The notes: a model not told the origin generated them from the letters alone. A stretch of DNA of 64,000 nt from Candidatus Omnitrophota bacterium (GCA_029261035.1 JAJDCD010000022.1:16063-80062), one strand, 5' to 3'; positions 4,176 to 58,705 are shown, numbered from the stretch's first letter. Made by a program: numbers and translations.

Positions 4176-4252
4176 TTGTCATCCTGAATGTAACGAAGTA
4201 TATCAGGTAAAAGATTTTTCAGCTCATTTTTTAAAATGCCTCAGAATGACAT
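4176..4252. repeat. MITE-like intergenic repeat, family A (inverted termini GTCATCCTGA / TCAGAATGAC)
   Basis: Seen in sequence, between sufC and sufD. Confidence 0.6.
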
Positions 4253-4281
4253 GTGTAAGATATTTTTTTTGGAGAATAAAG

Positions 4282-5619
4282 ATGACGGATATAAAACAGA
4301 AATCACAGTTTAAAGAGTGCTTTAATGATAAAAAGCTTTCTTTTGAAAGTTTAGATTGGGTGAAATCTGTCCAAGAGAGGGCATGGACTCAGTTTCAGAG
4401 TTTGGGATTTCCGACTCAAAAGGATGAAGGGTGGAAATATTTTAATATAGAGTCACTTCTTAAGAATTCTTATGAGAGTGAAAGAAATTTTGAGCTTACT
4501 TCAGAGATGACGACGCGTATTCAACGTTATTTCTATGAAGAATCAGCTGCGAGTCGATTAACTTTTTTGAATGGAAAAAAAGAAAGTGGTATGACAAGCT
4601 TAAAAGATTTGCCTGCTGGAGTGGAGTTTCTTCCTTTGTCTGAAGCATTAAAAACGAAAGAAAGTAAAATAAAGCCTTATTTAGGTCTGAATATTGAAAA
4701 AGAAGAAAATGCTTTCAGCGCTTTAAATGCGGCACAGTTTGAAGAAGGCATCTTTTTATACGTACCTAGAGATACGGTTGTTGATATTCCGATTCATTTG
4801 TTGTTTTTTAATTTAAGTTCAGATTCCACACCTTGGATTGCTCATCCGCGTAATATTATTGTTGTCGACGAAGGAGCTAAGCTTAATTTGGTTTATGAAC
4901 AAGTAGGATTGGATGTGAATAGTACTTTAATTAATGTATTTAACCAAATTCATTGTGAGAAAAACTCTTCGGTTCATTATCTTGGGATACAAAGAGAATC
5001 TCTTGGATCTTATCATTTAATGAATTCTCATGTTTATCTTCAAGAGGGAAGTAGCTTTGAAGGGGTTTTGTTTGCTCAGGGTGGTTCTGCAAGAAGAGAT
5101 GAATTTCAGTTCTACATTGAAGGAGAAAATACGCACTGCTCTTTGAAGGGGTTAGGGGTTTTGGCAGGAGAGTCCAAGTTGTTTTCTCATGTGACCGTGC
5201 ATCACCAAAAGCCTCATGGTAGCAGTAAGCAGTTATTTAAAAATATTTTAGCGGACAAAGCTCAATCAGAGTTTAATAGTTTGGTTCATGTATATCCGCA
5301 AGCGCAGAAGTCGGACACACATCAGCTAAATAGAAACCTTTTAGTTTCTGATAAAGCTCGAGCGTATTCTAGGCCGCAGCTTAAGATTGAAGCGGATGAT
5401 GTTCAGTGTGCTCACGGCTCTTCCATAGGTCAAATGGAAGAAGATGAGTTGTTTTATTTGCAAAGTCGTGGATTGAATAAACAACTAGCACGCTTTGTGA
5501 TGACATTTGGATTTGCAGAAGAGGTTTTAGAAGGAATTCAGATTCCAACCTTAAAAAGAGATTTGGAATGTGCGCTTCGAATAGAGTTGGAAACAATACT
5601 GAATAAGCATCAAGTGTAA
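4282..5619 (+). CDS. sufD: Fe-S cluster assembly protein SufD
   Basis: SufB/SufD-family C-terminal β-helix. Start chosen at MTDIKQ after the GGAG RBS; the track ORF begins at 4246 inside an intergenic repeat. Confidence 0.85.
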   Translation: MTDIKQKSQFKECFNDKKLSFESLDWVKSVQERAWTQFQSLGFPTQKDEGWKYFNIESLLKNSYESERNFELTSEMTTRIQRYFYEESAASRLTFLNGKKESGMTSLKDLPAGVEFLPLSEALKTKESKIKPYLGLNIEKEENAFSALNAAQFEEGIFLYVPRDTVVDIPIHLLFFNLSSDSTPWIAHPRNIIVVDEGAKLNLVYEQVGLDVNSTLINVFNQIHCEKNSSVHYLGIQRESLGSYHLMNSHVYLQEGSSFEGVLFAQGGSARRDEFQFYIEGENTHCSLKGLGVLAGESKLFSHVTVHHQKPHGSSKQLFKNILADKAQSEFNSLVHVYPQAQKSDTHQLNRNLLVSDKARAYSRPQLKIEADDVQCAHGSSIGQMEEDELFYLQSRGLNKQLARFVMTFGFAEEVLEGIQIPTLKRDLECALRIELETILNKHQV

Positions 5620-5623
5620 TAAG

Positions 5624-5712
5624 TTTGTCATCCTGAGCGTAGCGAAGGATCTCTGGCAAAGGAGTAAAGTTTTTCGGAAGATTCTTCGTCGCAAAGTTCC
5701 TCAGAATGACAG
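5624..5712. repeat. family A repeat (TTGTCATCCTGAGCGTAGCGAAGGATC … CCTCAGAATGACAG)
   Basis: Between sufD and sufS. Its first 27 nt recur inverted at 41140-41166. Confidence 0.65.
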
Positions 5713-5732
5713 TAAGAGGTAGGTGAATAATC

Positions 5733-6965
5733 ATGTTAACAAAAGACATAATCAACGTAGAAAAAATCAGAAAAGATTTCCCCGTTCTTTCTACTACCAT
5801 GCACAAACATCCTCTAGCTTATTTAGATAATGCAGCAACCACACAAAAACCCCTAGTTGTTATTGATAGAATCAACCGTTTCTTAAAAGAAGAGTATGCA
5901 ACCGTAAGTCGTGGTGTTTATATTCTGAGTCAAAATGCAACTCAAGAATGTCATGAGGTTAGGGAAAAGTGTCAGAAGTTTTTGAATGCAGAGAAATTAG
6001 AAGAGATTATTTTTGTTCGAGGTACGACAGAGGCGATTAATTTAGTGGCAGCATCTTATGGTAGGAAGTTTTTAAAATCAGGAGATGAAATTATCATTTC
6101 TGAGATTGAGCATCACGCAAATATTGTTCCCTGGAAACGATTGAGTGATGAAAAGGGTTTGGTTTTAAAAGTGATTCCTGTTAATGATGAGGGAGAGCTT
6201 ATTCTTGAAGAATACAAAAAAATGCTTACAGAAAAGACCAAATTAGTTGCTGTGGGCCATATTTCGAATGCGTTAGGAACCGTGCATCCGATTAAGCAAA
6301 TTATTAAATGGGCCCATGAAGTAGGGGCGAAGGTCCTTATTGATGGAGCTCAAGGAGCGCCTCATACCAAGGTAGATGTTCAGGAATTAGATTGTGATTT
6401 TTACTGTTTTTCAGGCCATAAGATTTATGGTCCAACTGGGATTGGTATCTTATACGGAAAATATGACTTACTTGATTCTATGGATCCATATCAAGGTGGA
6501 GGTGAGATGATCGAATTGGTGACTTTTGAGAAAATCACCTATGCTAAGCCTCCAAGTCGCTTTGAAGCTGGAACTATTGCTATAGCTGAGATAGTAGGTT
6601 TGGGCCCAGCCTTAGACTATATCGAGAAAATTGGTCTAGAAAAAATAGCTGCTTATGAAGATGAGTTATTGAGAGTAGCAACAGAAAAATTGAAAGAAAT
6701 GGACGATATTACTTTGATTGGAACAGCAAAAGAAAAAGCTGGAATTATTTCTTTTGAGATGGATGAGGTGCATCCGCATGATATAGGCACTATTTTAGAT
6801 CAAGAAGGCGTAGCTATTCGGACGGGGCATCATTGCGCTCAGCCAACGATGAAACGGTTTGGTGTGCCTGCAACAGCTCGCGCCTCGTTTTCGTTTTATA
6901 ATAACCAACAAGATCTAGAGGCTCTTTTTAGAGGGTTGGACAAGGTGAGGGAGGTGTTTAAATGA
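5733..6965 (+). CDS. sufS: cysteine desulfurase SufS (class V aminotransferase)
   Basis: PLP-lysine motif FSGHKIYGPTGIG and active-site Cys loop RTGHHCAQP, 410 aa. Confidence 0.93.
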   Translation: MLTKDIINVEKIRKDFPVLSTTMHKHPLAYLDNAATTQKPLVVIDRINRFLKEEYATVSRGVYILSQNATQECHEVREKCQKFLNAEKLEEIIFVRGTTEAINLVAASYGRKFLKSGDEIIISEIEHHANIVPWKRLSDEKGLVLKVIPVNDEGELILEEYKKMLTEKTKLVAVGHISNALGTVHPIKQIIKWAHEVGAKVLIDGAQGAPHTKVDVQELDCDFYCFSGHKIYGPTGIGILYGKYDLLDSMDPYQGGGEMIELVTFEKITYAKPPSRFEAGTIAIAEIVGLGPALDYIEKIGLEKIAAYEDELLRVATEKLKEMDDITLIGTAKEKAGIISFEMDEVHPHDIGTILDQEGVAIRTGHHCAQPTMKRFGVPATARASFSFYNNQQDLEALFRGLDKVREVFK

Positions 6966-7411
6966 ACATCCCAGAACCTAAGTTAGATCATCTATATCAA
7001 GAAACCATTCTTGAACATAATAAGAATCCGAGAAACTTTAAAGAGTTAGAGAGTCCAACGCTTTATTCTCATGGTCATAACCCTGTTTGTGGTGATGACT
7101 ATCATTTATATTTAAATACAGATACAAATAAAGTGATTACTGATATTGCTTTTCATGGCTCAGGATGTGCGATATCAAAATCATGCGCGTCTATCATGAC
7201 GACTCTTGTTAAAGGAAAGACCTTAGAAGAAGCTCAGGAGTTGGAGGAAAACTTTTCTTCTTTTATGACCGATAAAGAAGTGAGTGAAATTACAAAAGAA
7301 AAAGTGGGGCGTTTAAAAATGTTTGAAGGAGTACGAGAGTTTCCTATTCGCATTAAATGCGCCACTTTAATTTGGCATGCACTGAAGGATGCAATCAAAG
7401 ATAGCAAATAG
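6962..7411 (+). CDS. sufU: SUF-system NifU/IscU-like scaffold (SufU)
   Basis: ATGA start/stop overlap with sufS. Conserved Cys residues (NPVCGDD…HGSGCAISKS…IKCATL). Confidence 0.88.
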   Translation: MNIPEPKLDHLYQETILEHNKNPRNFKELESPTLYSHGHNPVCGDDYHLYLNTDTNKVITDIAFHGSGCAISKSCASIMTTLVKGKTLEEAQELEENFSSFMTDKEVSEITKEKVGRLKMFEGVREFPIRIKCATLIWHALKDAIKDSK

Positions 7412-7440
7412 CTATTAGCCTTTAGCCACTAGCCATTGAA

Positions 7441-7515
7441 TTGTCATCCCCGACCTGATCGGGGATCCAGTTTTTTAATTACCTGGATTCCCGACAAAAG
7501 ATTTCTGGAATGACA
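7441..7515. repeat. family A repeat (TTGTCATCCCCGA … CTGGATTCCCGACAAAAGATTTCTGGAATGACAG)
   Basis: After sufU. Its core recurs at 53399-53432 and 57040-57088. Confidence 0.65.
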
Positions 7516-7539
7516 GTTGTTCTGGTTAGGAGGTTTTTT

Positions 7540-7570
7540 CTATCCGCTAAACGCTCTATGCTGAACGCTA
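7540..7570. repeat. family B motif CTATCCGCTAAACGCTCTATGCTGAACGC, immediately 5' of DUF59 gene
   Basis: Recurs at 52094-52126 (5' of lipA) and partially inverted at 56935-56950. Confidence 0.55.
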
Positions 7571-7589
7571 ATAAACAGAGGATAATAAC

Positions 7590-8135: not shown

Positions 8136-8199
8136 TTTATCTAACCTTGATCCTTTTTATAGCTAAGGTATACTATAATTATATTAACCTTTAACGGTA

Positions 8200-14136: not shown

Positions 14137-14139
14137 ATC

Positions 14140-35795: not shown

Positions 35796-35797
35796 AA

Positions 35798-38220: not shown

Positions 38221-39010
38221 AGCTTTTTATTTACAGCCTAAATTCTCTCATTTGGGCCCGGGCCTAAATGGAAGTTTTTTAAAATAAAGAACGTTTTATG
38301 TCGGAAAGATGTTCTTGCTCTTCTTTGTGAATAGGTTGTTCATGAAACTCTTTTATGTCGGATAAGGCATATGACATGTTTTCATTAAACATTGAAAGTC
38401 CTCCTGTTGTATCTAAGTAGTTCCATTCAGGTAAAGTTTTAACGTAACTTCCGTAACTGGACCATCTATAATTTTCTGGAGATGTAACAATATTTGCTTT
38501 TACTGGATTGTTATGGATATATCGAAGTAAAACTTTTCCATAGAGGTTTTCATTTACTAATCTATATTTGTATCTTCCCTGAAATAATGGTCCTATACGC
38601 TTATATTTCGTATTAAAAAAACGTGAGTACGTTGATGTAATATGCCAGATAGCCTCACTTAAATTAGGAGATACTGTTTGGATGAACAGGTGAAAGTGAT
38701 TATCCATAAGGCAGAACGCAAATAGGTTTACGTTATACTTTTTTACACTTTCCGAGGTTGCTTTGAGAAACATTTTTCTATCATAGTCGTCAAAAAATAT
38801 TTCATGCTTATTTACACCTCTATTGTATATATGATAATAAGCCCCTGGGTATTTGATTCTAGCAAAATGAGTCATAACGTATATTATTATAAATAATATA
38901 TAAATTTCAAATAATAAAATAAAAAATTGATAAAATATTCAAACAAGAGACCGATAAGTTTTTATTTTACAGTCTAAATTCTTGCATTTGGGCCCGGGCC
39001 TGTTTGGAAG
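38221..39010 (-). mobile_element. IS200/IS605-like or RAYT-like element: Y1 (HuH) transposase bracketed by ~52-bp direct repeats containing GGGCCCGGGCC palindrome
   Basis: Direct repeats at 38225-38275 and 38959-39010 are about 85% identical. Confidence 0.6.
38279..38875 (-). CDS. tnpA: Y1 HuH transposase (IS200-family/RAYT-like)
   Basis: …NHFHLFIQT… HuH motif, with downstream Tyr candidates. Confidence 0.8.
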   Translation of the reverse strand: MTHFARIKYPGAYYHIYNRGVNKHEIFFDDYDRKMFLKATSESVKKYNVNLFAFCLMDNHFHLFIQTVSPNLSEAIWHITSTYSRFFNTKYKRIGPLFQGRYKYRLVNENLYGKVLLRYIHNNPVKANIVTSPENYRWSSYGSYVKTLPEWNYLDTTGGLSMFNENMSYALSDIKEFHEQPIHKEEQEHLSDIKRSLF

Positions 39011-39067
39011 GTTTTGGGTGGTTTGGGTGTTTTAATTGAGGGGATAAGTAGCTAGTATGAAGGTTTT

Positions 39068-41100: not shown

Positions 41101-41139
41101 TGAAAGCAACTTTTAGCTTTTAAAAAAACGAAAAAAACA

Positions 41140-41230
41140 GATCCTTCGCTTCGCTCAAGGGTGACAATTTGTCTGTTCTCTTTGTCGTTAGATTGCCGCA
41201 GTTATTTTTTTTCCTCGCAATGACACATGC
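41140..41230. repeat. family A repeat, inverted orientation (GATCCTTCGCTTCGCTCAAGGGTGACAA … AGATTGCCGCAG … CCTCGCAATGACAC)
   Basis: Between the nnrE and Rieske genes. Confidence 0.65.
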
Positions 41231-41708: not shown

Positions 41709-44700
41709 TTGGAGACTCAATTGAATTCAGACTCAAAATTAATAAAAGTTTTAGCATTTTTCATCTCTTTTTATTTTACACTTTTTTCAACCTTTTCTTA
41801 TGCTAAGGCAATCCCTGTAGCTCAAGTGGGTTCTTATGGGGATAATCCTTTAAGCATTTCTATTCCTTCTGAATTAGGAATACTCCGTAATAGTACCCCT
41901 ATTTTTCAAAAGAAGGGTATTATTTTTCATATTCAAGACGCGCATGGGCAATTAGAAGCTCAAGAGAATATTGAGAAATTACTCCACTACTTAAATTCTG
42001 AGCACAATGTAAATCTAATTTTTATGGAAGGAGCTCTTCAGGGAAGTGTTTCAAAAGACTTACTTCGTTTTTACTCCGAGCCAAAAGCGAATGAAAATGT
42101 TGTGGAGCAATTACTTGAAAAAGGGTTGATTGGTGGTGCTGAAAAATTCTTAGTTAATTCGGATAAAGAAACAAAAGGTTTTGGGGTAGAAAATAGTTCT
42201 CTTTATAGAGAAAATTTAGAATTATTTAGAGATGTATATAAATATCGAAAGATCACAGATATTTTCTTAAGCCAGTTTAGAAGTCGAATTGATTTGCTCT
42301 CCACTCATTATTTCAATTCGGACTTAAGAAAGTTTGTTATGGAGTGGTTGAAATTTTCTCGGAAAGAAAATCTTCAATACCGTTTTATTCAATTTTTAAA
42401 TAAATCATCAAAAAAATATCTAAACCTTGATTTAAATAACCCTCGAACCCAACTCCGTTACCCCCAATTAACGCGCTTCTTCACACTAAAGAAACTTGAA
42501 GAAGAGTTGAAGGGTGAGGATGCTCAAAAAGATTTAAAGGTTGAGAAAGTAAAATTTAATAATTGGCTTACTAACAAAGATATTTCTTCTGAGACTCAAA
42601 ATTTATTTAAACTGTTATTAGATTTTCATTCCTTATCTTCTGTTTCGAATATTAAATTTGATATTCGAAAAACTCTCGAAATCTTTTATACTCAAGCTTC
42701 TAAGAAAGGCTTTCAATTTCAAGATTATCCTCAGTTAACACGTGTTATAGGCAGTCTAATGTTATCTCAAGAACTTCAAGCGACGCAGTTGTTTTTAGAA
42801 GTAGAAGGTGTGTCTGAAGCTATTCTGGGAAAGTTAACGCAATCTGAGATAGAGAAAGATTTAGTCGGTTTAATCAAAAAATACTTATCCTTAAAAAAAC
42901 TTTTTGCTTTGGAATTAACGCGTGAAGATTGGAGAAAGATAAATTTATATGGAATTCATTTAATTGCACCTGAAGAATTAGTCTCTTCTATTCATGGAAC
43001 GGTTGAGTCTAAACGTATTGAAGAGTTGAAAGTAGATTTTGAAATTAAAGAAGCTTTTGAGAAAGCGACGCAATTTTATGCAGTAGCTGAAAAGAGAGAG
43101 TCTGTGATTGTTGAGAGTGTTCTCATCAATACAAAAGAGAATCAAAATGCTGTTCTGGTTACCGGAGGTTTTCACTCTGGAGGTTTGAGAGACTTGGTGG
43201 AGAAGGGAAGAAAGACTTTTATTGAGATAACGCCTAAAGTCACTCATTTAAATTCGGATCATACCTATTTAAATCAGATGTTGCTCTCTGATGTGTCTAC
43301 AGTTCCGTCCCTTTCTTTGGGGAAGCTATCATTACCTCAAATTGACCGTAATTTTGGGAGTGAGTCAGGACGATATGTGTTATCACAGCTTATGCCTATT
43401 CTTTCTCGTACAGATGGGAGATCAGGAATAGCCTTTGATGTTCATGGTATTAAACCGACGCATCGGTTGGAGCAACCTCAATTACAGACTGTAAGTGTTG
43501 CAGCCTCTTTAGGGAATAACTATCTAGAAAATGCTTTCTTTAAGTCTGCTCGTTTTGTTTCTCGAATACTGCCAACAACTTGGAAAGAAGATATTAAGAG
43601 TGTAATTTTTAGAAGGTTAGCTAAAAACCTTAAGAAGGCTATAGTGGAGTTTGCGATTCAATATGAAGATTTACATCCAGGAGCTCAAATTGATAAACCA
43701 ACGAAAGAGATGCAAGAAGCTTTCTTGAAAATTGCGAGACCCTTAGTGGAGAAGTGGTCTTCTAAACTTAAAAATAAACTTCGTTATCGTTTTCTTTTAC
43801 CTCTTGTTTTGAATTACCCTGAAGGGGATGAGGAGTACCGTAGAAATTCTATTTTTATAGATAAGGATACGGGATTTGGAATTTTTACTCATGTTTGGAA
43901 AAAGGACGGAAAAACTTTAATTCATAATCATGATGGAACTATGGCGCTGTTGATGCCTTTTACCAATGAGATGAAAGAGGAAGTGTATCAATTGGTAGAA
44001 AAACCCAAGTCTCCGGAGTGGGATAAACAAATACATGACTTAGAGATGATTGAAGAAAGAAAATTAGGATTGGGTACCGTTGCAAGTTTTACAAGAGGTC
44101 AACGGTCGATTCATCGAGTGAAGAACTCTTCTCCTTCGAGAGAAGGGCTTGTGATGGAGATTTACGTTTGGATGGAAAGTAATCCTCCAAAACAAGTGAA
44201 TGTTCCTATTCCTGTTTGGGGAGAAGAAAAAGCACATTTTATTTTGAGAGAAGAAGCCGGTAAATTAGCAGTTCCGTTACACCAGACTTTAAAACCGCAC
44301 TCGGGACAGTTGATAAGACCGGAAATGGTAGGAGTTTTTGTTGATCATTTGAAGCTGCAAATGGAAGAGTATGCGCAGAAGGGGAAGGTGTACCCCATAT
44401 TTATATTTGATGGAAAACAAATTTATGTTTTTGAAGATGTAGAGAAAGCTTTTGAGTGGTATTACGAATTAGATCCCGCAAACAGACCTGATGTTTATAT
44501 TAAGCTTACAGAAGAACAAGAGTATGCTTTTCTGGATGCCTCAAATGTGAATTTCCATCAAGAATCATTAGGCTCGAGTTTGGGGTTATCTGTTACAGAA
44601 GAAGTGCAAGAGAAGGCGGAGCTCTTTCGTACTTTGAAAGGTGTTGGAGATGTTGAATTCATTGATGCTTTTATACAGAATGTTTACTATTCTTTACTGG

Positions 44701-47700
44701 ACTCACCTCCAAGTGAAATAGTTGTAGACCCCGAAAATTATCAAGAGGGCCCTTCTTTGTTTGTTGACTATCGTGAGAAATGGTTAAAACACTTTGAAGG
44801 TTATTTTGATATAGCGACTCTTCTACAAGACGCTACTCCTGAATTTATCGACTACATGAAAGCTATTTTATTAAAGATGTTTTTTGAAAGATTTCCCGAG
44901 GTGGATAATCTGCCTGTTAGAGCTATTGAAGAGTTGGTGTATGAGTTCATTCGTTTGATTACTGGAATGCCAGAAGTAATGTCTTTCTTTAAAATGCGCG
45001 CACTTAGAGTCGGGGTGCACGAATTGCCTTTGCTTCATTTGAATAGTTCTGCTACGAGTAACGCGAGAGAGATGGGACACTATCTGATGGGTTTTGCCGC
45101 TCAAGCAAACATAGCGACCTCAGATGATTTTCGAGCTGCTGGAATAGATATGTATGAAACAGAGCAAAGAATGAAAAGAAATACTACTTTTGATGAAGAT
45201 CAAAAACAGGATTTAATTGAAGAGCCCTTTGCGAAATATGCCATGAGAATTAGAGAGGTTCAACCTAAGTTTTCGATTGATGCTCGGAATCCTCTGTTAA
45301 ACCGTTTGTTAGAAAGAAATGAGGAGGATGAGATTAAATCAAAACAAATTCTCTACTTCTTAGATAATACCATGGAATCCATTTTTGATTTAGGTCTGAT
45401 CCGTTGGATGATACAAATGGGTCATCAGGTTACTTTAGTAGCAAAAGAAAAAGAAGCTGATAATGATATGACTGTTGATGATGTTAATTTGCTATTAAGT
45501 TTAGAGCAAGTAAAAGACTTTTTCAAAGACATTGATATTCAGGAAAAGATAAAAGTAATTTCAAGCGGTTCTGCAACTAGAGGAACAAACCTCAGAAGAG
45601 CAACTCCAGTCTTGGTAGAAGCATGGCAACAAGCAGAGATTATTATTTCAAAGGGAGAGGGGAATAGAGGAACTCTTCAAGGTGTTAATAAGGATGTGTA
45701 TCACTTCGTGATGGCAAAACAAGGACATGAAACTCCTGGGATCCATCAAGGAACCATAGCTGTTGAGCATGTTTTGGCAGCAAAGAAAACAGAAGCTTCA
45801 AGCTTAGGGGTTGAGAATGTTGATGACTCGATGCAGGAATTTATCCTCCGCTATTTAGAGCCTAAATTACCATCGCCTCAAATTGTTGCAAAGCCTAAAC
45901 AGTACCGAATGACATCAAATGTGTTTTCATCTACCCATCCAGAGATTAAGGAAAAAAGAATCGCAAATACTTTTCTCTATTTAGAGATGATGATGCAAGG
46001 GCTGTCGGCAGAAACACAAGAGAAGAACAGATTGCTACTAAAACGTTTCATGGATAGACCGGAATTGGAAGGGGTTAATTTAAGGCTCTTTTCTTTAATT
46101 GTTTATGATTTTATAAAAATTTTGACTGAAAGAAAAGAAGGTTTAAGTAATGCAAAAAAAGAAGCTTATTCTATTGTCCTAGACATTTTGCATATATCGA
46201 AACATGAGTTTGAAGGTTTGGAAAGCGCACGCGAACAAGGGGCTTTAGCTATTGATTTTGCTACGCGCGGAAATCAAACAACTTACCGTACTTTTTTAGA
46301 AATATCTCAAGGATCTATTCCAACGATAGGTTATCGTGCTCACATGATGGCGCTTACGAATGAACCTTTGGCTTGGTCTGTGGATGATCGTTCTGAATTG
46401 TTAGACCTCTTGTTAGAATCAGAAAAAGGAAAGGTGAAGTCGAAGCATGTACTTTATCTTCTGGATAATGTCATAGAAGATGTTTTTGATTTAATATTAG
46501 TTCAGTGGCTCCTTGAACAAGGCCACACAGTTACTCTTGTTGTTAAAGAATTAGAAGCTGGAAATGATACGACCTTTGAGGATATAAACTATTTAATTCA
46601 ACAAGAAAAGGTTTTGGAGTATTTAAAACAGAGTGGAAACGTTTTTAATATTAATATCGTTTCTAGTAAGTCTGCAACGCATGCAACAGATTTGCGTTTT
46701 GTGACAGAAGAAGATAATCTGGGGCTATATCATTCTTGGCTTGCTGCAGATGTGATTATAGCTAAGGGAGAAGGTAATCGTGGAGCTTTGCAGGGAATCC
46801 ATAAAGATTTTTTTAGTTTAGTAAATTCAAAAGCAGGTTACGAAACTCCTGGAATCAAAAAAGGGACACGTGCTGTTGAAAGAAATTTAGGATACCAATC
46901 TAGAACAGCTCTCCGTTCTACTGTATTTCAACACATAAACGGAATTGTTTTAGCTCCCGTGATGAACTCTTTAGCGAAGAGGGGTGTTTTTAATTTGTTC
47001 AGACCTTCAGAAGGTGGATATGAAGAGGTTTCGGAAATGGGTGAAACTCGAGCTGAAACCATGGATGAAGATGAAGCGTTAGACGATGCAGGTCTTTCTA
47101 GAGTTTTAACTTTAAAACAAATCGCGGAAAGTCGATTTGCAAATCGTGCTATTGTTGAGGGTAACCCTGAGGATAATATGGGTAATCTTTATGGAGCTCT
47201 TCGGATGTTGGCTCTTCAAGGTTGGCTCACGATGGAAGGGGTCGATGAGGAGACAAAGTTTGCGTTAACAGAGCAAGGTTGGAAAGCTGTTGGCTTAGCT
47301 GAAAAAGGGACGTATATACCTTCAGTAGAAGCTGTGTCTAACTTAAATCAATTATATCGTTTAATCCGAGGTCCTCCCGCCGGCTTAGGAATGTTGTTTA
47401 GACAAAAATCTGAAAATGATGAGCAATTAAAAAGCTATAAAAAATTAATCCAATTGAGTAAAAAGAATTGGGGTATAAGAGGTGCGAAGTACTCTATTGA
47501 AGAACGTGTTTACCAGCAAGTGGTTAAGCAGATGGACGGGATGTTGTTGGGGCCAACCTTTGTTGCTTTGGCTATGCCTTTATATGAAGAACGAGGCGAA
47601 AAAATAGAAAAAACGGGGCCCTCCTTTTTTGAGCACTTTGATCCAGAAACACACACGCTTGATTTAACAACGTTAAAGGGATCCTTTCACCCTGAGTTTT

Positions 47701-50700
47701 TAAATGAAGCATTAGGACTTTTGGAAAATAAAGGTTTTATCGTTTTTGAAGGCACCGATAAAAAAGTTGTTCGTTTGACTGCTACGGGTCGAGTGATGGG
47801 AACGCGTCCTAGAAAAGGGAAGTCGGAGCTAGCTACAGCTTATGGTGTTACTAATTCTTATCTCGTCGGTTATCAATATGTGGATGAATGGTTGTTTGGT
47901 AATGGAGCTATTCTGGATTCAATTGAAGGGGATCGATTAGATCGTGTGATGGATGTTTGGGGTTCTGGAGGAAGTCATAAGGCTTACTTGGGGGGTGTAT
48001 TGTCTTATATGGAAGAAGTGTTTAATAAACCCCTAGAAGATCAGCCTGAAGGCTATGCGGATATGGGCAGTGGTAGTGGAGAGATGGCTGAAGAAATTAC
48101 AGATTTTATTCTTAATAAAACAGCGCGCGGTAACGTTCTGGAAGAGAAGGCTTTAACTGTGGTTACCTCGGACTATGATCGAGCATCTCAAAGACGTTCT
48201 CGAGCTACGATGGAAACAGCTTTTGGAAATAGAAAGGACATTCATTTAGAAACACTTTATGGTGATATTACAAAACCGGGTGAATATGATGCTGCAATTC
48301 GAAATTCATCCGATCTCAATGGAGCAACTGCTCGTAATTTGGTGCATTCTCAATTTTTTATACCTCACGAACGTTTTCTTCAATTAAAGTATGATGAAAA
48401 AAATAATGCGTTAGATATTATTCGTGAGAGTTTAAGTGCCGTTGATCGAGTTCAGCTAAAAAAAGCCTTAGAGCTTTTAGGAGAAACAAGAGAATTGCCA
48501 ACAGGTGAGAACGAGTTATTTGAGTTTGTTATTCGTCAATTCACAACCTCTTATTCGGATCGAGGTCGCTTGATTCCAGCTGTAGTTCAGGCTGCGGATT
48601 TAATGCAGTTTATGAGAAAGTGGGCGCCTTATACCCAACATGGATTAATTGTTTTAGATTTACATACACCTAGAGTTAACAGTCTGCTATTTCAGGATAT
48701 CCCAAAGGATTTAAATCAACCCATGACCGTGGAATTAACTCCAGCGGTTGCTTATTGGGGAACCCATTGGATTCCGAGAAAGAACGCGCCATCCCAATTG
48801 ATTATGCCTTATGAAGAATATAACCTTGTGATGGTTTTAGCCGGGATGACGCCAATTAGTCCAAAGCAATACCCTCCTAAAAAGACATTGCCAACCAACG
48901 TAAGTTTGACGCTTTACCGTGAGTCTAGTGCCGCAAACTCATTGGGTAAGGAGAATGATTTTCCTTTAACTCAGAAAGAGGCTCTTCAGATGATTTCGAA
49001 GAGAACTTTTAAAACGAAAGACTTAGATCGTATTCAAGGTGTTCCAGTTTCTAAAAGTAATATTTCATACAAACACCCCTATGTAACAGAAACGCAGATG
49101 AAATTATTAGCGAAAGTTTCTGAACAGAAGTATACGGATGAAGAACTTGATGTTGTTATTCAAGGAGGTTTTTTTAAGCCATTAACTCCAAAAGAAAGAG
49201 AAGAAGCTAATAAATTAGAAGATGCTCGAGGCTTTTATCTTTTTGATGAGCGTGATGTTTTGTTTCGTAGAGTAGATGTGGAACGATTATTAAATGGAAT
49301 GATTAGAGAAAAATATGCGCGTCGTCTTATGCGCACAGATCGTATTCGGATTGTTAGGTTATTAAATATTAAAGGAAACAAAGAGCATTGGGAAGTTCAG
49401 ACTTATGGAAAGATTCAATTAATCCCTGTTGCAGTAGTCAGAGAATGGTTAGAAGAAAAAGAACGTTTAGTTCATAGAGCAGTGGCTAAAAAAGTTTTAG
49501 AAGGGTTGGGTATTCGAATTGGTTCTTTTTACAGTTTTCTTAAGAAGCCTAAGAGTCATCTGAAAGGAGTTCAATTACCTGAACATAATAAAGAAAGAGG
49601 TGATTTGCTAAGTGTTAATTTGTATGGTTCTCCTGAATATCTAGATATACGAACTCTATGGTGGATTGTTGAACATCACACTAAAAAACAAGTGGTGAGT
49701 CAGCCTGGAAGTTCGGGGAGTGGAAGAGATGTGTCCAATGCTTCAAGTTTAGGCAATCCAGATAAAAGCGAAAAGTCAGAACGAATACAAAAGGCCATAA
49801 AAAAGACAGGGTATTCGGTGAAAAAATTTACTTCAAAAATGAGAGGGGAAATGTCGGCCTCTACCTTAGCTAGTTGGGCTAGTGGATATTACGAACCGAC
49901 CCTAGAGCAGGTTCAGTGGGTGGAATTAGAATCGGAGCGTTTAATGAAAAAGGTGAGAAAGCAAATTGTTAAACGTGTTCTTTATTTAAAAAATCTTTTA
50001 GATTTATCTCCCAATAAATTTCTTCAATTATTAAAAACAGAATTAAATTGGAAACGTTTTCCAACAGTACTTCAAATAACAGAAGGTGACTTTGACTTAA
50101 CCCCTTCTCAGCTAGAAGAAATTGAGTTGGTAGCAAAAAAAACTATTGCCGAGGAGTTTCGTTATTTGAGAAGAGAGATCTTGAACGAGGGGCAAATTAC
50201 TTTTTCAGATTATCTGGAAACTCATCAAGTGACATTGTCTCGTTACGAGAGAGGTGTTTTGCCGATTACAGTGGATTTAGCTAAAGCTTTAAGAAAAGCG
50301 CGAAGGATTGTTTATGAAAAAGCTCCTGAGAAACTAAAACGAACTCGACTTCAGTTAGATGTATCTCAAGTAAAAATGGGGGAATTGTTAGGTTTTAAGG
50401 TCCAACATGTAAGAAAAAAGACAGAAAACTTAGAGTCAGGTCATACGTTGATGCCTCCTGGGTTATTGCAAAAGGCTCAAAAGCTTTTGGGTACTTTAAA
50501 GAAACAGACAGGTCTTAAACTTCGTTTTTATAGAGAGCGAGCAGGATTGACCCAAGAAGAGCTGGTTGAAGCGATTGACGTTGAAGGCGTTGATAAAGCG
50601 CGAAACATTAGTTTGTTTGAAAAGGGAACGTTGGTGACGCCTTATGAAGTGATGGTGCGAACTAAAGAAATAGCTCGAGAAACAGTTACAGATGAAAATC

Positions 50701-51683
50701 TAAAAAGAGGATTGGAATTAAAATTTTATCGACTTCAAACAGGAATGACTCAACCTGAGTTTGTTGAAGCGCTTAATTTGGATAGTATCAATGAAGGCCG
50801 TCAAGAACTTGGAAGAATGGAAAGAGGGCTGTATCACGTACCTCAAGAAGTTCTCGATGCTGCTCGATTTATAGCTCAGAGACGCTCTGATTTTTCATTG
50901 TTCGAAACTTCAGCTGCTAGTTTAGGTTTAGAGAAATCTGTTATTGAAGTTGCGCGTTTCCCTGGTCAACGATTGTTTCGTGTTTCGGAATTGAGTGGGG
51001 AGCGTATTGGAGAGTTCTTTGAACAATTGGGTTTAGCGGATTCTACTTCTGTTGATAAGGATGTTCAATTATTTAATAAGGATTTAACTATCTTACTTTC
51101 AAATTTAGGTTTTGCTGATAGGCGTCAGCAAGAGAGAAGGTCTCTGCCTTTGATTTTAAACCAAGAAGTTTTGAATATGTATCAGAAGGAATCTGAAAAA
51201 GTTGTTCATAAAATATTAGGGGCAGTAAAACGAGGGGATGAGCTTTTAATTTTAAAGACAGAAAGAAAGGCATCTCGTTTGATTGATCAGTTGAAAACTA
51301 AGGCTCATGGAAAAGTGAAAATTCAAGTTTTGCCCGAAGCGCTTTTCAACTCTCAAAGAGTTGGGGTCTTAACTGAAAAATATCAAACAAAGCCAATTCT
51401 CGTAGAGTCTCTGTCTTCTGGAAAAAGAGATCAAGTTTCTGTGGACGAAATTCGGTTGGACTTAGATGCATTTACCCAAAGAGGAATTGATCCCATTCAG
51501 GTATTAGCCTTAATTAGGAGAATGGCGGATGATCCGAATAAAAGGGCTCAGTTGTTCTTTGAGGCTGGATTTGACTTTAACCAGGACCGTCAATATTGGG
51601 TTGTGGGACAACGCTTTGTACAGATTATGACCCAAATCTACTCCGAATACCTCCAATCGCGTCAGATAGCCCAGGCGGCCTAA
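41709..51683 (+). CDS. giant multidomain protein (3324 aa): signal/anchor, 2× DUF89-like, O-methyltransferase-like SAM domain, 5× XRE-type HTH repeats
   Basis: Uninterrupted ORF. The TTG start at 41709 or 41721 is uncertain (GGAGA RBS precedes 41721). Domain coordinates are given in the findings. Confidence 0.8.
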   Translation: METQLNSDSKLIKVLAFFISFYFTLFSTFSYAKAIPVAQVGSYGDNPLSISIPSELGILRNSTPIFQKKGIIFHIQDAHGQLEAQENIEKLLHYLNSEHNVNLIFMEGALQGSVSKDLLRFYSEPKANENVVEQLLEKGLIGGAEKFLVNSDKETKGFGVENSSLYRENLELFRDVYKYRKITDIFLSQFRSRIDLLSTHYFNSDLRKFVMEWLKFSRKENLQYRFIQFLNKSSKKYLNLDLNNPRTQLRYPQLTRFFTLKKLEEELKGEDAQKDLKVEKVKFNNWLTNKDISSETQNLFKLLLDFHSLSSVSNIKFDIRKTLEIFYTQASKKGFQFQDYPQLTRVIGSLMLSQELQATQLFLEVEGVSEAILGKLTQSEIEKDLVGLIKKYLSLKKLFALELTREDWRKINLYGIHLIAPEELVSSIHGTVESKRIEELKVDFEIKEAFEKATQFYAVAEKRESVIVESVLINTKENQNAVLVTGGFHSGGLRDLVEKGRKTFIEITPKVTHLNSDHTYLNQMLLSDVSTVPSLSLGKLSLPQIDRNFGSESGRYVLSQLMPILSRTDGRSGIAFDVHGIKPTHRLEQPQLQTVSVAASLGNNYLENAFFKSARFVSRILPTTWKEDIKSVIFRRLAKNLKKAIVEFAIQYEDLHPGAQIDKPTKEMQEAFLKIARPLVEKWSSKLKNKLRYRFLLPLVLNYPEGDEEYRRNSIFIDKDTGFGIFTHVWKKDGKTLIHNHDGTMALLMPFTNEMKEEVYQLVEKPKSPEWDKQIHDLEMIEERKLGLGTVASFTRGQRSIHRVKNSSPSREGLVMEIYVWMESNPPKQVNVPIPVWGEEKAHFILREEAGKLAVPLHQTLKPHSGQLIRPEMVGVFVDHLKLQMEEYAQKGKVYPIFIFDGKQIYVFEDVEKAFEWYYELDPANRPDVYIKLTEEQEYAFLDASNVNFHQESLGSSLGLSVTEEVQEKAELFRTLKGVGDVEFIDAFIQNVYYSLLDSPPSEIVVDPENYQEGPSLFVDYREKWLKHFEGYFDIATLLQDATPEFIDYMKAILLKMFFERFPEVDNLPVRAIEELVYEFIRLITGMPEVMSFFKMRALRVGVHELPLLHLNSSATSNAREMGHYLMGFAAQANIATSDDFRAAGIDMYETEQRMKRNTTFDEDQKQDLIEEPFAKYAMRIREVQPKFSIDARNPLLNRLLERNEEDEIKSKQILYFLDNTMESIFDLGLIRWMIQMGHQVTLVAKEKEADNDMTVDDVNLLLSLEQVKDFFKDIDIQEKIKVISSGSATRGTNLRRATPVLVEAWQQAEIIISKGEGNRGTLQGVNKDVYHFVMAKQGHETPGIHQGTIAVEHVLAAKKTEASSLGVENVDDSMQEFILRYLEPKLPSPQIVAKPKQYRMTSNVFSSTHPEIKEKRIANTFLYLEMMMQGLSAETQEKNRLLLKRFMDRPELEGVNLRLFSLIVYDFIKILTERKEGLSNAKKEAYSIVLDILHISKHEFEGLESAREQGALAIDFATRGNQTTYRTFLEISQGSIPTIGYRAHMMALTNEPLAWSVDDRSELLDLLLESEKGKVKSKHVLYLLDNVIEDVFDLILVQWLLEQGHTVTLVVKELEAGNDTTFEDINYLIQQEKVLEYLKQSGNVFNINIVSSKSATHATDLRFVTEEDNLGLYHSWLAADVIIAKGEGNRGALQGIHKDFFSLVNSKAGYETPGIKKGTRAVERNLGYQSRTALRSTVFQHINGIVLAPVMNSLAKRGVFNLFRPSEGGYEEVSEMGETRAETMDEDEALDDAGLSRVLTLKQIAESRFANRAIVEGNPEDNMGNLYGALRMLALQGWLTMEGVDEETKFALTEQGWKAVGLAEKGTYIPSVEAVSNLNQLYRLIRGPPAGLGMLFRQKSENDEQLKSYKKLIQLSKKNWGIRGAKYSIEERVYQQVVKQMDGMLLGPTFVALAMPLYEERGEKIEKTGPSFFEHFDPETHTLDLTTLKGSFHPEFLNEALGLLENKGFIVFEGTDKKVVRLTATGRVMGTRPRKGKSELATAYGVTNSYLVGYQYVDEWLFGNGAILDSIEGDRLDRVMDVWGSGGSHKAYLGGVLSYMEEVFNKPLEDQPEGYADMGSGSGEMAEEITDFILNKTARGNVLEEKALTVVTSDYDRASQRRSRATMETAFGNRKDIHLETLYGDITKPGEYDAAIRNSSDLNGATARNLVHSQFFIPHERFLQLKYDEKNNALDIIRESLSAVDRVQLKKALELLGETRELPTGENELFEFVIRQFTTSYSDRGRLIPAVVQAADLMQFMRKWAPYTQHGLIVLDLHTPRVNSLLFQDIPKDLNQPMTVELTPAVAYWGTHWIPRKNAPSQLIMPYEEYNLVMVLAGMTPISPKQYPPKKTLPTNVSLTLYRESSAANSLGKENDFPLTQKEALQMISKRTFKTKDLDRIQGVPVSKSNISYKHPYVTETQMKLLAKVSEQKYTDEELDVVIQGGFFKPLTPKEREEANKLEDARGFYLFDERDVLFRRVDVERLLNGMIREKYARRLMRTDRIRIVRLLNIKGNKEHWEVQTYGKIQLIPVAVVREWLEEKERLVHRAVAKKVLEGLGIRIGSFYSFLKKPKSHLKGVQLPEHNKERGDLLSVNLYGSPEYLDIRTLWWIVEHHTKKQVVSQPGSSGSGRDVSNASSLGNPDKSEKSERIQKAIKKTGYSVKKFTSKMRGEMSASTLASWASGYYEPTLEQVQWVELESERLMKKVRKQIVKRVLYLKNLLDLSPNKFLQLLKTELNWKRFPTVLQITEGDFDLTPSQLEEIELVAKKTIAEEFRYLRREILNEGQITFSDYLETHQVTLSRYERGVLPITVDLAKALRKARRIVYEKAPEKLKRTRLQLDVSQVKMGELLGFKVQHVRKKTENLESGHTLMPPGLLQKAQKLLGTLKKQTGLKLRFYRERAGLTQEELVEAIDVEGVDKARNISLFEKGTLVTPYEVMVRTKEIARETVTDENLKRGLELKFYRLQTGMTQPEFVEALNLDSINEGRQELGRMERGLYHVPQEVLDAARFIAQRRSDFSLFETSAASLGLEKSVIEVARFPGQRLFRVSELSGERIGEFFEQLGLADSTSVDKDVQLFNKDLTILLSNLGFADRRQQERRSLPLILNQEVLNMYQKESEKVVHKILGAVKRGDELLILKTERKASRLIDQLKTKAHGKVKIQVLPEALFNSQRVGVLTEKYQTKPILVESLSSGKRDQVSVDEIRLDLDAFTQRGIDPIQVLALIRRMADDPNKRAQLFFEAGFDFNQDRQYWVVGQRFVQIMTQIYSEYLQSRQIAQAA

Positions 51684-52093: not shown

Positions 52094-52126
52094 CTATCCG
52101 CTATGCGCTAAACGCTCTACGCTGAT
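52094..52126. repeat. family B motif CTATCCGCTATGCGCTAAACGCTCTACGCTGA 5' of lipA
   Basis: Seen directly. Confidence 0.55.
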
Positions 52127-53398: not shown

Positions 53399-53432
53399 CT
53401 GGATCCCCGACAAAAGATTTCGGGGATGACAT
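53399..53432. repeat. family A fragment CTGGATCCCCGACAAAAGATTTCGGGGATGACAT
   Basis: Upstream of the aminotransferase gene. Confidence 0.6.
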
Positions 53433-53466
53433 ATTTTTAAGCTGAAAGCGGATAAAGGAGTTTGTT

Positions 53467-56209: not shown

Positions 56210-56934
56210 AAATTAAGAGTCCTTTTAAGCCCAAATCTGACCTTGCCCAAATTTCAGAAGTGTTTTCTTCTATTCAAGGCGAAGGGCTTTGTGTCGGAGA
56301 AAAGCATTTATTCGTTCGTTTTCGTTCTTGCAATATCGCTTGTTCTTATTGTGATGAATATGACAAAGTGTACTTTGAAGATCTTTCAGTTATTCAACTC
56401 ATGACTTCCATTCAATCTTTAGATAAAGAAAAAGGGCCGCATGATTATGTGAGCCTGACAGGTGGAGAGCCTTTGCTTTACACGTCTTATCTTAAAAATC
56501 TAATCCCGGAGCTTAAAAGAGAAGGGCATTCCATTTATCTTGAGACAGGGGGTATTCTTTATCATCAGTTAGAAGAGGTTGTCGCTTTTTGTGATTTTAT
56601 TTCAATGGATATGAAGCTACCCAGTGTTACGGGAGAAAAAGATTTTTTTAAAGAACACGAAGCTTTTCTTAAAATTGCTAAACAAAAACAAGTATTTGTT
56701 AAAATTGTTTTGTCCAAGCAAACAAAGTTAGAAGAGTTTCTAAAAGCCCTGGATGTTATTTCTAGAATTGATAAAACAATCCCTCTTGTATTGCAGCCTG
56801 TTACAGATATAAAAACACAGGAGTTGGAACCTGGAATTGGAGAGTATTTATCAAGCTTGGTTTCAGTAGCTAAACGATATTTAGTTACAGTAAAAGCAAT
56901 TCCGCAAACGCATAAGTGGATGAATATACAATAG
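56203..56934 (+). CDS. queE: 7-carboxy-7-deazaguanine synthase QueE (radical SAM)
   Basis: CNIACSYCDE. Confidence 0.85.
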   Translation: MLKIKSPFKPKSDLAQISEVFSSIQGEGLCVGEKHLFVRFRSCNIACSYCDEYDKVYFEDLSVIQLMTSIQSLDKEKGPHDYVSLTGGEPLLYTSYLKNLIPELKREGHSIYLETGGILYHQLEEVVAFCDFISMDMKLPSVTGEKDFFKEHEAFLKIAKQKQVFVKIVLSKQTKLEEFLKALDVISRIDKTIPLVLQPVTDIKTQELEPGIGEYLSSLVSVAKRYLVTVKAIPQTHKWMNIQ

Positions 56935-56935
56935 C

Positions 56936-57088
56936 GTGGAGCGTTTAGCGTGACTGAAGGATCTCGGAAGTGAGAAGCCTGAGATTGCCACAGCTCGGCT
57001 GTTGTTGCTTCACAATGACAAAAAGCATTATGGATTCCCCCGCCCAACAAACTGGTGGACAGGCGATAAAAGATTTCGGGAATGACAC
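56936..57088. repeat. composite family A/B repeat (…GAGATTGCCACAGCTCGG…CACAATGACA…GGATTCCCCCG…AAAAGATTTCGGGAATGACAC)
   Basis: Between queE and rph. Confidence 0.6.
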
Positions 57089-57135
57089 TTTTTCTAATTA
57101 TTATGTCACCTAGTTTAATCAACAAAGGAGAGAAA

Positions 57136-57846
57136 ATGAAGAGGATGGATGGCCGTAAGCCTGATGAAATGAGAAAAGTAAAAGTAAAAATGGGTTATTT
57201 AAAATATGCTCTTGGATCTTGTTTGATAGAGTTCGGGAATACTCGTGTATTGTGTAGCGCTTCGATTGACGATGGTGTTCCGCGATTTTTAAAAGGACAG
57301 GGAAAAGGTTGGCTGACCTCTGAGTATGGAATGTTGCCAGCATCTTGTAATTCTCGTATCTCACGGGAGTCGAGTAAAGGAAAGATTAGTGGTCGAACTT
57401 CAGAAATTCAACGACTTATTGGACGTTCTTTGAGAGCGGTTGTTGATTTAGAAAAATTAGGGGAAAGAACCATTTGGATTGATGCCGATGTGATTCAAGG
57501 CGATGGGGGGACTCGAACAGCAAGTATTACTGGAGCTTATTTGGCGCTAAAGCAAGCAGTTGGAAAGCTTATTAAACAGAAGGTTCTTACAGAAGACCCA
57601 ATTATTGATAATATTTCAGCGATCAGTGTTGGAGTTATCGGAGGAGTTCCTTTTTTAGATTTATGTTACGTTGAAGACTCTAGTGCAGATACCGATATGA
57701 ATGTAGTGATGACCGGTAAGGGTAAGTTTATTGAAGTTCAAGGTACTGCAGAAGGAGCTCCCTTTACTGAGAAGGAACTGAGTCAGTTGTTAGTTCTTGC
57801 TAAAAAAGGGAATAAAGAACTAACAAAATTACAAGATAAGTATTAG
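57136..57846 (+). CDS. rph: ribonuclease PH
   Basis: RNase PH fold (…ITGAYLAL…). Start moved to MKRMDGR after the AAAGGAGAG RBS. Confidence 0.9.
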
Positions 57847-57904
57847 CGTATAGTTGTAGAAAGCTCTCACTACCCCCCCCCTGTCAGGGAGAGGGGATTT
57901 TGTT

Positions 57905-58525
57905 TTGTTATTGCTAATAGAAAGTGATCTGTTGAAGAAGACTATTGTTGTTGCCACAAAAAATGAGCATAAGGTAAGAGAATTTAAATCTATTTGCACA
58001 GGAATGGATTTTAAATTTGTTTCTTTAACTGCTTTTCCTGAAATTAAATCCGTACGAGAAGATGGAAAAACGTTTGAAGAGAATGCGATAAAAAAAGCAG
58101 TTTATGTTGCAAAGAAAACAGGTTGTTTTGCTATAGCGGATGATTCAGGTATTTGTATTGATGCGTTAGGGGGGAAGCCTGGAATTCGATCGGCGCGATT
58201 TGCCGGGTATAAAGGGGATGAGGCTAATAACTCTAAAGTATTTCGATCTTTAAAAGGTGTTTCAGATAAAGATCGAAAAGCTCATTACCATTGTTCTATT
58301 GCTATAGCAAGCCCAGACAAAGTGATTGGATGTTGTGAGGGTAAAGTCTATGGCCGTATCACTCATGAACGAATAGGTGAAAAGGGTTTTGGCTATGATC
58401 CTTTATTTTATTTTCCACCCTTTAAAAAAACATTTGCACAAGTTAGCTTAAAACAAAAAAACAGGGTATCTCACCGTGCAAAAGCCTTAAAAAAAGCGGT
58501 TAGAATACTAAAAAAATTAAAATAA
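57905..58525 (+). CDS. rdgB: dITP/XTP pyrophosphatase (RdgB/Ham1)
   Basis: …ATKNEHKVREF…, FGYDPLF. Confidence 0.85.
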   Translation: MLLLIESDLLKKTIVVATKNEHKVREFKSICTGMDFKFVSLTAFPEIKSVREDGKTFEENAIKKAVYVAKKTGCFAIADDSGICIDALGGKPGIRSARFAGYKGDEANNSKVFRSLKGVSDKDRKAHYHCSIAIASPDKVIGCCEGKVYGRITHERIGEKGFGYDPLFYFPPFKKTFAQVSLKQKNRVSHRAKALKKAVRILKKLK

Positions 58526-58527
58526 AG

Positions 58528-58705
58528 TCATTGCGAGCTTCAGCAAGGATGCGCGGCAGTCTCAGAATTTAGTATTTTTTCCCTTTAATCCGAGATTGCC
58601 ACGGCTCTTTTTTTCGTTGCCTCGCAATGACGTATCTGAGGGTGCTTAGCTGTCCGCCGCAAAAAACGGAGGATCTGTCTTTGACGGAAAAGCGAAGGGC
58701 TGACA
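58528..58705. repeat. composite family A repeat (GTCATTGCGAGC … GAGATTGCCACGGCTC … CCTCGCAATGACG …)
   Basis: Between rdgB and the DUF2203 gene. Inverted GTCATTGCGAG/CTCGCAATGAC termini. Confidence 0.6.

Follow-up and report, generated by a model that had tools for sequence, protein, structure and literature searches.

We analyzed a 64,000-nt stretch of DNA from a Candidatus Omnitrophota bacterium, hereafter the window, which carries sufC, sufD, and sufS, a NifU-like gene, a sufT-like gene, and lipA, as well as genes for RNase PH and a DUF2203 protein. The G+C content of the window is 38%, 94% of it is coding, and its intergenic DNA amounts to 3.8 kb in total. Short repeats are dispersed over this intergenic DNA, and an initial annotation had divided them into two families, Family A and Family B, resembling miniature inverted-repeat transposable elements (MITEs). 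Our results confirmed that the repeats are genuine copies of a DNA repeat that forms hairpins and is known from many bacterial phyla, and Family A is not one MITE but a set of self-contained hairpin units of 25–57 nt. Overall, this is a real, ordinary-looking repeat system. The hairpin units occupy ~670 nt, approximately one-sixth of the intergenic DNA of the window (summed annotated coordinates), and have accumulated between co-directional neighboring genes; three of the occupied gaps belong to the suf operon.

Unit heads were searched for with a pattern of GTCAT followed by CCTGAG, TGCGAG, or YCCNGA (three head types). The window contained 13 such heads, compared with 0.69 ± 0.84 (maximum 4) over 300 dinucleotide shuffles, although this test is somewhat generous because the pattern was derived from the same copies. 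A generic detector (GTCAT plus any stem) was too permissive, giving 14 matches compared with 6.6 in shuffles, and was dropped for the specific heads. Twelve of the 13 heads were strictly intergenic (binomial P = 3e-14), and the remaining one overlapped solely with an upstream ATG that had been called mechanically as the start of the RNase PH gene. The motifs quoted in the initial annotation were all found where it had placed them, and its description of dispersed, extragenic, hairpin-forming repeats of the REP (repetitive extragenic palindrome) kind was borne out. An Rfam scan of the whole window gave no match on any repeat, the Moco riboswitch being the only hit, and a tRNA search of the window found none.

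Each unit consists of (T/C)GTC, a stem beginning with AT, a loop, and the complementary stem closing with AT, followed by C. All 13 units start with GTCAT or GTCAC. The base before GTC is T in nine, A in two, and C in two of them; over 177 pairs from all loci, it was T in 67% and C in 21%. C directly follows the closing AT in 11 of the 13 units, the exceptions being a decayed unit at 4222–4250 and a degenerate one at 58527–58553. Some units stand alone, whereas others are arranged in tandem or in inverted pairs whose tags point outward; the window holds four inverted pairs (4178–4250, 5627–5710, 7443–7514, and 58527–58631), one tandem pair (41140–41224, minus strand), one single unit (53399–53430), and one mosaic (56956–57086). 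GTCAT…ATGAC, previously taken for the inverted termini of one element, marks two distinct hairpin units that face each other, each with its own tagged head. Family A comprises two structural classes with three stem types.

Class I consists of four units with a continuous stem of 6–8 bp; three of them have 8 bp, including one that is mismatched at a single position. Each of the stems ATCCCCGA, ATTCC(A)GA, and ATTCCC in the window pairs with its own complement, and the tails of the four units are CCAG, CCA, CCAG, and CCAT. In the inverted pair at 7443–7514, the unit at 7443–7470 (+) reads TGTC-ATCCCCGA-CCTGA-TCGGGGAT-CCAG, with an 8-bp stem and a 5-nt loop, and is separated by a 13-nt spacer from the unit at 7484–7514 (−), GTCATTCCAGAAATCTTTTGTCGGGAATCCA, which has the 9-nt loop AATCTTTTG. 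The single unit at 53399–53430 (−), GTCATCCCCGAAATCTTTTGTCGGGGATCCAG, forms a perfect 8-bp stem with the same 9-nt loop, and the 34 nt spanning it (53400–53433) are 100% identical to a stretch in a locus (L095) of an Omnitrophota metagenome-assembled genome (MAG). The fourth unit, at 57030–57086 (−), belongs to the three-part mosaic at 56956–57086 (−), in which it is physically joined to a class II unit at 56981–57019 (−) and to the truncated 3′ half of a CCTGAG unit (GAAGGATCTC). It has a 6-bp stem and a 38-nt loop that includes an extra ~23 nt (CCTGTCCACCAGTTTGTTGGGCG, 57053–57075). This insert is a small hairpin in its own right and looks like the nested insertion of a very small element.

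Class II consists of nine units of the CCTGAG and TGCGAG stem types with a bulged GAG…CGAA hairpin. The outer stem is 5 bp (ATCCT/AGGAT or ATTGC/GCAAT), the bulge has GAG on the 5′ side and CGAA or CGTG on the 3′ side, the inner hairpin is variable, and the tail is C(T/C)C. The general form is GTCAT-NNN-GAG-(inner hairpin)-CGAA-NNN′-ATC, where the inner hairpin is often a GCGNAGC mini-hairpin flanked by GA/GA. A decayed inverted pair of the CCTGAG type is located at 4178–4250 between sufC and sufD (units 4178–4205, +, and 4222–4250, −). An intact inverted pair at 5627–5710, between sufD and sufS, consists of the unit GTCATCCTGAGCGTAGCGAAGGATCTC at 5627–5653 (+), with the apex GCGTAGC in a GA-GCGTAGC-GA core, and the unit GTCATTCTGAG...CGAAGAATC at 5677–5710 (−); the sequence of this pair was also found as an identical stretch on a Logan contig (L001). 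The repeat at 41140–41224 (−), between convergent genes, had been described as one inverted copy but turned out to comprise two tandem minus-strand units of different type, a TGCGAG-type unit at 41190–41224 and the CCTGAG-type unit GTCACCCTTGAGCGAAGCGAAGGATC at 41140–41165. The inverted pair of the TGCGAG type at 58527–58631 combines the degenerate unit at 58527–58553 (+) with an intact unit, GTCATTGCGAG...CGTGGCAATCTC, at 58592–58631 (−). At 58634–58722, there are decayed remnants (GGAGGATCTG and GCGAAGGGCTGAC) together with three GCTNNNN heptamers.

The folding of the copies as single-stranded DNA was compared with that of shuffled sequences. Intact copies folded better than shuffles at 7441–7517 (z = −2.66), 53399–53433 (z = −3.3), and 58525–58634 (z = −3.27), and the pair at 5627–5710 gave z = −1.85. 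Covariation was analyzed for 150 28-mers from all loci, anchored solely on GTCAT…ATC. The stem was paired in 82.6%, compared with 67.1% in shuffles, and 170 double-sided stem changes were observed, compared with 58.6 in shuffles, a number reached in 0 of 500 shuffles. Slid controls lowered the pairing to 25–46%.

The repeats were also found far outside the window. The pattern of the right-hand class I unit, CGAYAAAAGATTTCNGGRATGAC, occurred in at least 116 stretches in species-representative genomes, and the hosts among the matches listed were Zetaproteobacteria, Omnitrophota, Planctomycetia, Caldisericota, Atribacteria, Bacteroidota, Ignavibacteria, Nitrospirota, Clostridia, and others. Many of 136 listed copies had a GTCATTCCCGC-loop-GCGGGAATCCAG partner a few bases upstream, as in the window at 7443–7514. 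The same 23–26-mers recur in many phyla, and the repeats are not confined to the window.

The class I units fit the superfamily of CGTC/TGTC-tagged REPs, also called NTS/SRM, which was first described in 2013 and for which a partner nuclease was identified in 2025. CGTC-tagged REPs were catalogued by Di Nocera, De Gregorio, and Rocco in 2013 and include Neisseria dRS3 and Rickettsia RPE-4 and RPE-6 (PMC3733652). They carry a CGTC tag (often TGTC, with CCTC allowed), an 8–9 bp stem beginning with AT, a 4–5 nt loop, and a CCA tail, and are mostly inverted dimers between co-directional or convergent genes (PMC3733652). The same repeats were re-described by Chenal et al. in 2025 as NTS or Ssn-related motifs (SRM), and binding and cutting of the hairpin repeat by Ssn was demonstrated in Neisseria and Wolbachia (PMC11893778). 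The Neisseria NTS, CGTCATTCCCGCGMAVGCGGGAATCYRG, forms a hairpin bound by SsnA, a 94-aa GIY-YIG protein that is active on single-stranded DNA alone and cuts a few bases upstream of GTC and the palindrome; the three bases 5′ of the palindrome matter for cutting, and the C 3′ of it is most important for binding (PMC11893778). The motif is rare within genes, ssn genes across phyla are bracketed by SRM, and 81% of genomes with more than 200 SRMs encode an ssn gene (PMC11893778).

We examined 80 metagenomic loci encoding Ssn-clade GIY-YIG proteins. A forward GTCAT was located within 120 nt upstream of the gene in 61 of 76 loci, and ATGAC within 150 nt downstream in 67 of 77. Both were present in 53 of about 76 loci, against a background of 0.13 per 120 nt. 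The CCCGA stems of the window were also found at some of these loci (L175, L177, L186, and L204). The encoded proteins belong to a very large family with 60–70% identity across phyla, which also includes a GIY-YIG open reading frame (ORF) beside a class I copy (L089). These results confirmed that the SRM-ssn-SRM layout is reproduced in metagenomic loci of other organisms. The inverted pairs of the window have the layout of its two ends without the gene, and we therefore read them as non-autonomous derivatives. Insofar as these pairs appear to derive from a larger unit and lack its gene, the earlier term MITE-like retains some merit.

Taken together, we consider it probable that Family A consists of GTC-tagged stem-loop repeats of the CGTC/TGTC-tagged REP (NTS/SRM) superfamily and that the pairs of the window are gene-less derivatives of SRM-ssn-SRM units. 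By analogy with the published nuclease, the hairpin would form only in single-stranded DNA, where a ~95-aa GIY-YIG nuclease, Ssn, would bind it and cut a few bases 5′ of GTC. An Ssn-type nuclease may act likewise on the copies of the window, and it may be the driver by which inverted pairs spread, or are still spreading, through a single-strand DNA route without target duplication. The hairpins could also affect transcripts (termination or mRNA stability) or incoming single-stranded DNA. The units have accumulated in operon gaps and are nested with Family B palindromes, and the two repeat types together form mosaics like BIMEs or NIMEs.

Several results weigh against this explanation. The published degenerate SRM pattern, HGTCWYN(0-2)YYVSBRHN(0-5)WNVSBRGN(0-2)RNCYNB (PMC11893778), was matched by only one of the 13 units, at 7442–7470 (0.02 matches in shuffles); the other 12 failed through loop length or stem letters. 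Regular-expression, Pfam, and hidden Markov model searches found no GIY-YIG gene within the window. Furthermore, the published work on Ssn demonstrates cleavage and an effect on transformation, not transposition of the repeats (PMC11893778). The decayed copies folded no better than shuffles (4176–4252, z = −0.6; 41138–41228, z = +0.2; 56955–57090, z = −0.6), such that the hairpin folding claimed for every copy holds for the intact ones but not for these three. Decayed copies make up approximately one-third of the total, which leaves the earlier description of the system as active or recently active unsupported. Finally, class II units never directly flanked the Ssn-clade genes of the 80 loci, and no GIY-YIG ORF was found in 171 (52 + 119) class II-bearing viral loci covering 1.5 Mb.

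The class II results also speak for an alternative, in which class II is a separate system with its own partner enzyme and its likeness to the Ssn system is limited to the GTC…ATC frame. This alternative overlaps with the explanation given above, and we regard it as possible but on the unlikely side. In addition to failing the SRM pattern, class II has a distinct conserved architecture: of 132 distinct units, 103 had CGAA or CGTG as the 3′ bulge, and 19 carried a GCGNAGC apex, compared with 1.4 expected. Hirao and colleagues reportedly found that GCGNAGC forms a mini-hairpin of very high stability in DNA and that tandem GA/AG mismatches are stable there as well. A second small GIY-YIG clade showed a CCTGAGC…CGAAGG hairpin just upstream in four independent loci, although this hairpin is without the GTCAT/ATC frame. 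The genes of this clade (L088, 3600–4200; L250–L253; L254; L255) are located directly after a tRNA or tmRNA gene and are preceded by a ~100-nt stretch closed by the inverted repeat TGGTTCGAC...GTCGAACCA, with the hairpin ending 5–60 nt before the start codon. The locus could be a tRNA-targeted element of its own; no relatives of the clade were found in viral contigs. On the other hand, class II shares the head, the AT start of the stem, and the C tail with class I. Each class was present at 0.02–0.15 units per kb in loci selected for the other, which we estimate at roughly 10–100 times chance for 11-mers of such degeneracy, and the two classes are joined in the mosaic at 56956–57086. A Caldisericota MAG (JBPOJC01; L066, L102, L110, L142, L153, and others) is saturated with arrays of both classes at several units per kb, and these enclose small toxin-antitoxin-like genes.

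In viral sequences, CCTGAG units were found in 52 contigs and TGCGAG units in at least 120. Metagenomic contigs of diverse kinds also carried class II units. The ORFs between inverted class II heads were translations of the repeats themselves or toxin-antitoxin and phage genes, and the clustered neighboring ORFs in the viral loci were phage structural proteins only, with no recurrent transposase. In a recurrent group of phage-like IMG/VR contigs (L008, L024, L030, L261, and others), class II units are located between structural genes. Since class II units occur within phage-like contigs, the repeats are carried by viruses or are invaders of them. A full-text literature search for class II sequences gave no match.

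A different enzyme had been named as a candidate in the initial annotation, namely the Y1 transposase encoded at 38279–38875 on the minus strand, the only Y1 gene of the window. On this alternative, the repeats would be REP/REPIN elements mobilized by a RAYT-like protein. The gene product has a Y1_Tnp domain of the IS200-like type and is weakly RAYT-like, and REPs are likewise hairpin pairs without target-site duplications. However, the score against the RAYT model was 68 bits, below the cut-off of 80. A 59-nt repeat of its own lies in direct orientation on both sides of the gene (38221–39015); the two copies are 83% identical, and each contains a GGGCCCGGGCC palindrome that was found nowhere else in the window. 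No GTCAT unit adjoins the gene. Moreover, the tag of the window's units is (T/C)GTC rather than GTAG, and CGTC repeats were not found beside any tyrosine transposase gene (PMC3733652). The Y1 transposase was thus rejected as the partner of Family A, together with membership in the REP/RAYT group, and we regard this origin as very improbable. The Y1 gene with its flanking repeats may be a "TIRYT"-type unit as described in PMC3733652.

Since the copies are short and AT-flanked and have inverted ends, they could alternatively be classical MITEs moved by a DDE transposase. Target-site duplications of 2–8 bp were, however, at or below chance in the 177 pairs, there was no recurrent transposase nearby, and the supposed ends each fold on their own and are also found as single or tandem units. 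Classical MITE membership was therefore rejected, and this origin is hardly credible. The lack of target-site duplication argues against a DDE-type MITE and is compatible with a REP-like single-strand mechanism, which we infer rather than observe.

Family B proved to be a real repeat, but it is a 7-nt periodic array and not the unique 25-mer first described. Arrays of at least four AGCNNNN units occurred three times in the window, compared with 0.00 in 200 shuffles, and all were intergenic. They come in two inverted halves that make up a palindrome, the left one built of AGCNNNN and the right one of the complementary GCTNNNN. A left array of five AGCNNNN units at 7403–7440 (+), additional to those first reported, begins in the last codons of the NifU-like gene; the right array at 7540–7572 (−) is its inverse and is located ~20 nt upstream of the sufT-like start codon. 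A solo array of the right-half type at 52094–52125 (−) is located ~18 nt upstream of lipA, with ATGAC just 5′ of it. A three-unit array (AGCGTGG AGCGTTT AGCGTGA) at 56933–56953 (+), first placed near 56935, begins within the upstream gene's stop codon. Its sequence is almost the same as AGCGTGGAGTGTTTAGCGTAG, which lies at a non-orthologous site in the nearest relative found, a 178-kb ENA contig (L376).

Heptamer arrays bracket the class I pair of the window (7403–7572) and a TGCGAG pair in the relative. Inverted array palindromes with an empty centre stand alone in L129, from a Planctomycetia MAG, and in L382, a viral contig. In Omnitrophota-like loci, arrays flanked 4 of 112 sides of hairpin clusters, compared with a 0.4% background. 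The arrays were thus rejected as a regular flank of hairpin pairs, and the low count points to a separate element that is sometimes host to them. We read Family B as a separate palindromic element whose centre is at times occupied by hairpin pairs, and the copies at 52094 and 56933 as solo halves. Cyanobacterial short tandemly repeated heptamers (STRR), reportedly described by Mazel et al. in 1990, are intergenic tandem heptamers like Family B. The two differ in unit sequence; in Family B, only AGC is fixed and the inverted halves form a palindrome.

A further alternative is that the repeats are conserved cis-regulatory RNA elements of their neighboring genes (an iron–sulfur [Fe-S] regulon motif, terminators, or attenuators) kept by orthology. 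Consistent with this, two Fe-S genes have Family B 18–25 nt before their start codons. One terminator-like site (stem plus T-run) was found among the repeats, at 7446–7466, and one promoter-like site (CTGACA-17-TATAAT, with TG, 11/12) at 58700–58728 (+), within the GCTNNNN heptamers, overlapping the decayed remnants there and just upstream of the DUF2203 gene, whose start is probably the ATG at 58755. Nevertheless, the overall counts of promoter-like and terminator-like sites were at or below shuffle levels, the repeats had no Rfam match, and identical units occur in unrelated phyla and phage-like contigs. The link of Family B to Fe-S genes, suggested in the initial annotation, is unsupported because the arrays also adjoin RNase PH and, in the relative, other genes.

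The suf operon of the relative provided a direct comparison of orthologous gaps. Its SufD is 55% identical to that of the window, and the gene order (SWIB, Rrf2, sufBCDS, nifU, and sufT) is the same. In the SufB-SufC gap, the relative has a TGCGAG pair with heptamer arrays on both sides, whereas the window has 49 nt without a repeat. In the SufD-SufS gap, the relative has a TGCGAG pair with arrays and the window a CCTGAG pair without them. Both have a class I pair in the NifU-SufT gap, with the stem ATCCCGGA/TCCGGGAT and no arrays in the relative and the stem ATCCCCGA/TCGGGGAT with arrays in the window. This latter pair speaks for retention; as the sole such candidate, it might go back to an old insertion that both have in common and that was preserved with compensatory changes in the stem. 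As the other orthologous gaps differ in subtype or in presence and absence, they were repeatedly colonized or overwritten, and most copies are not conserved untranslated regions, in line with the initial annotation. We thus consider the cis-regulatory alternative improbable. The SufC-SufD gap of the relative (4832–5000) contains another palindromic repeat (GGGACTGTCCC / GGGACAGTCCC motifs) that is absent from the window.

Whereas class I belongs to the known family, class II and the heptamer palindromes are variants or companions outside the published definitions and the sole parts with discovery potential. A bolder proposal, which we put forward only tentatively, is that the class II hairpins and the AGCNNNN array palindromes are two further, undescribed families of single-strand-structured mobile DNA, each with its own partner enzyme. 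The second GIY-YIG clade would then possibly be the partner of class II, and class II, the heptamer palindromes, and the Ssn hairpins may nest into one another's loops, building intergenic mosaics.

Other features were observed in the window. A Moco riboswitch (RF01055) is located at 31525–31648 (+), scoring 37.8 bits against a gathering score of 36, just upstream of an ORF at 31682; ORFs with MoaE and ThiS domains follow further downstream at 35559–36226. Two giant ORFs are located at 41709–51683 (+, 3324 aa) and 59161–63936 (−, 1591 aa), and from 1 to 59 kb, a single strand carries almost every gene. RNase PH and Ham1 matched those of an Omnitrophota MAG with 63% and 45% identity in the same order, a SWIB-domain gene is present in the window, and there are Omnitrophota matches among the SufD homologues. 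These three clues suggest, short of proof, an Omnitrophota-like (PVC) bacterium. An exact look-up of the lipA product gave no match.

These hairpins make up about one-sixth of the non-coding DNA of the window, lie within an essential operon, and recur as the same 23–26-mers in unrelated phyla and phage-like contigs. Recognizing them avoids false calls of small ORFs and regulatory motifs, and the hairpins mark possible sites of action for single-strand-specific nucleases on DNA that is being replicated or taken in. The assignment would extend the 2025 Ssn findings to a poorly sampled Omnitrophota-like lineage. Class II is a concrete lead to another sequence-specific single-stranded DNA nuclease, which would be of interest for single-stranded DNA tools.

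Compared with the CGTC-tagged REPs, the unit at 7443–7470 agrees on every point (tag, 8-bp AT-stem, 5-nt loop, and CCA tail), whereas the other three class I units have loops of 9 nt or longer; two of them share the 8-bp stem, and the unit at 57030–57086 has a 6-bp stem and a 38-nt loop (PMC3733652). Class II departs from them in its 5-bp outer stem and bulged inner hairpin. The units of the window share with these REPs the extragenic placement, the frequent inverted dimers, the CGTC/TGTC tag, and the lack of an associated tyrosine transposase, although the Omnitrophota-like host group is outside the five phyla listed for them (PMC3733652). With NTS/SRM, they share GTC 5′ and C 3′ of the palindrome, a hairpin of 20–50 nt, and extragenic placement, but the window has no ssn gene and 12 of its 13 units are outside the published pattern (PMC11893778). 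REPs carry the tag GTAG instead of GTC(A/T), and their enzyme is an HUH tyrosine transposase, in contrast to the GIY-YIG protein of the CGTC/SRM family. Nevertheless, the REP/REPIN-RAYT system, BIMEs (Bertels and Rainey 2011, PMC3116915), and Neisseria NIMEs resemble the repeats of the window in having inverted hairpin doublets as the likely replicating unit, in lacking target duplication, in forming mosaics with other short motifs, and in accumulating in operon gaps.

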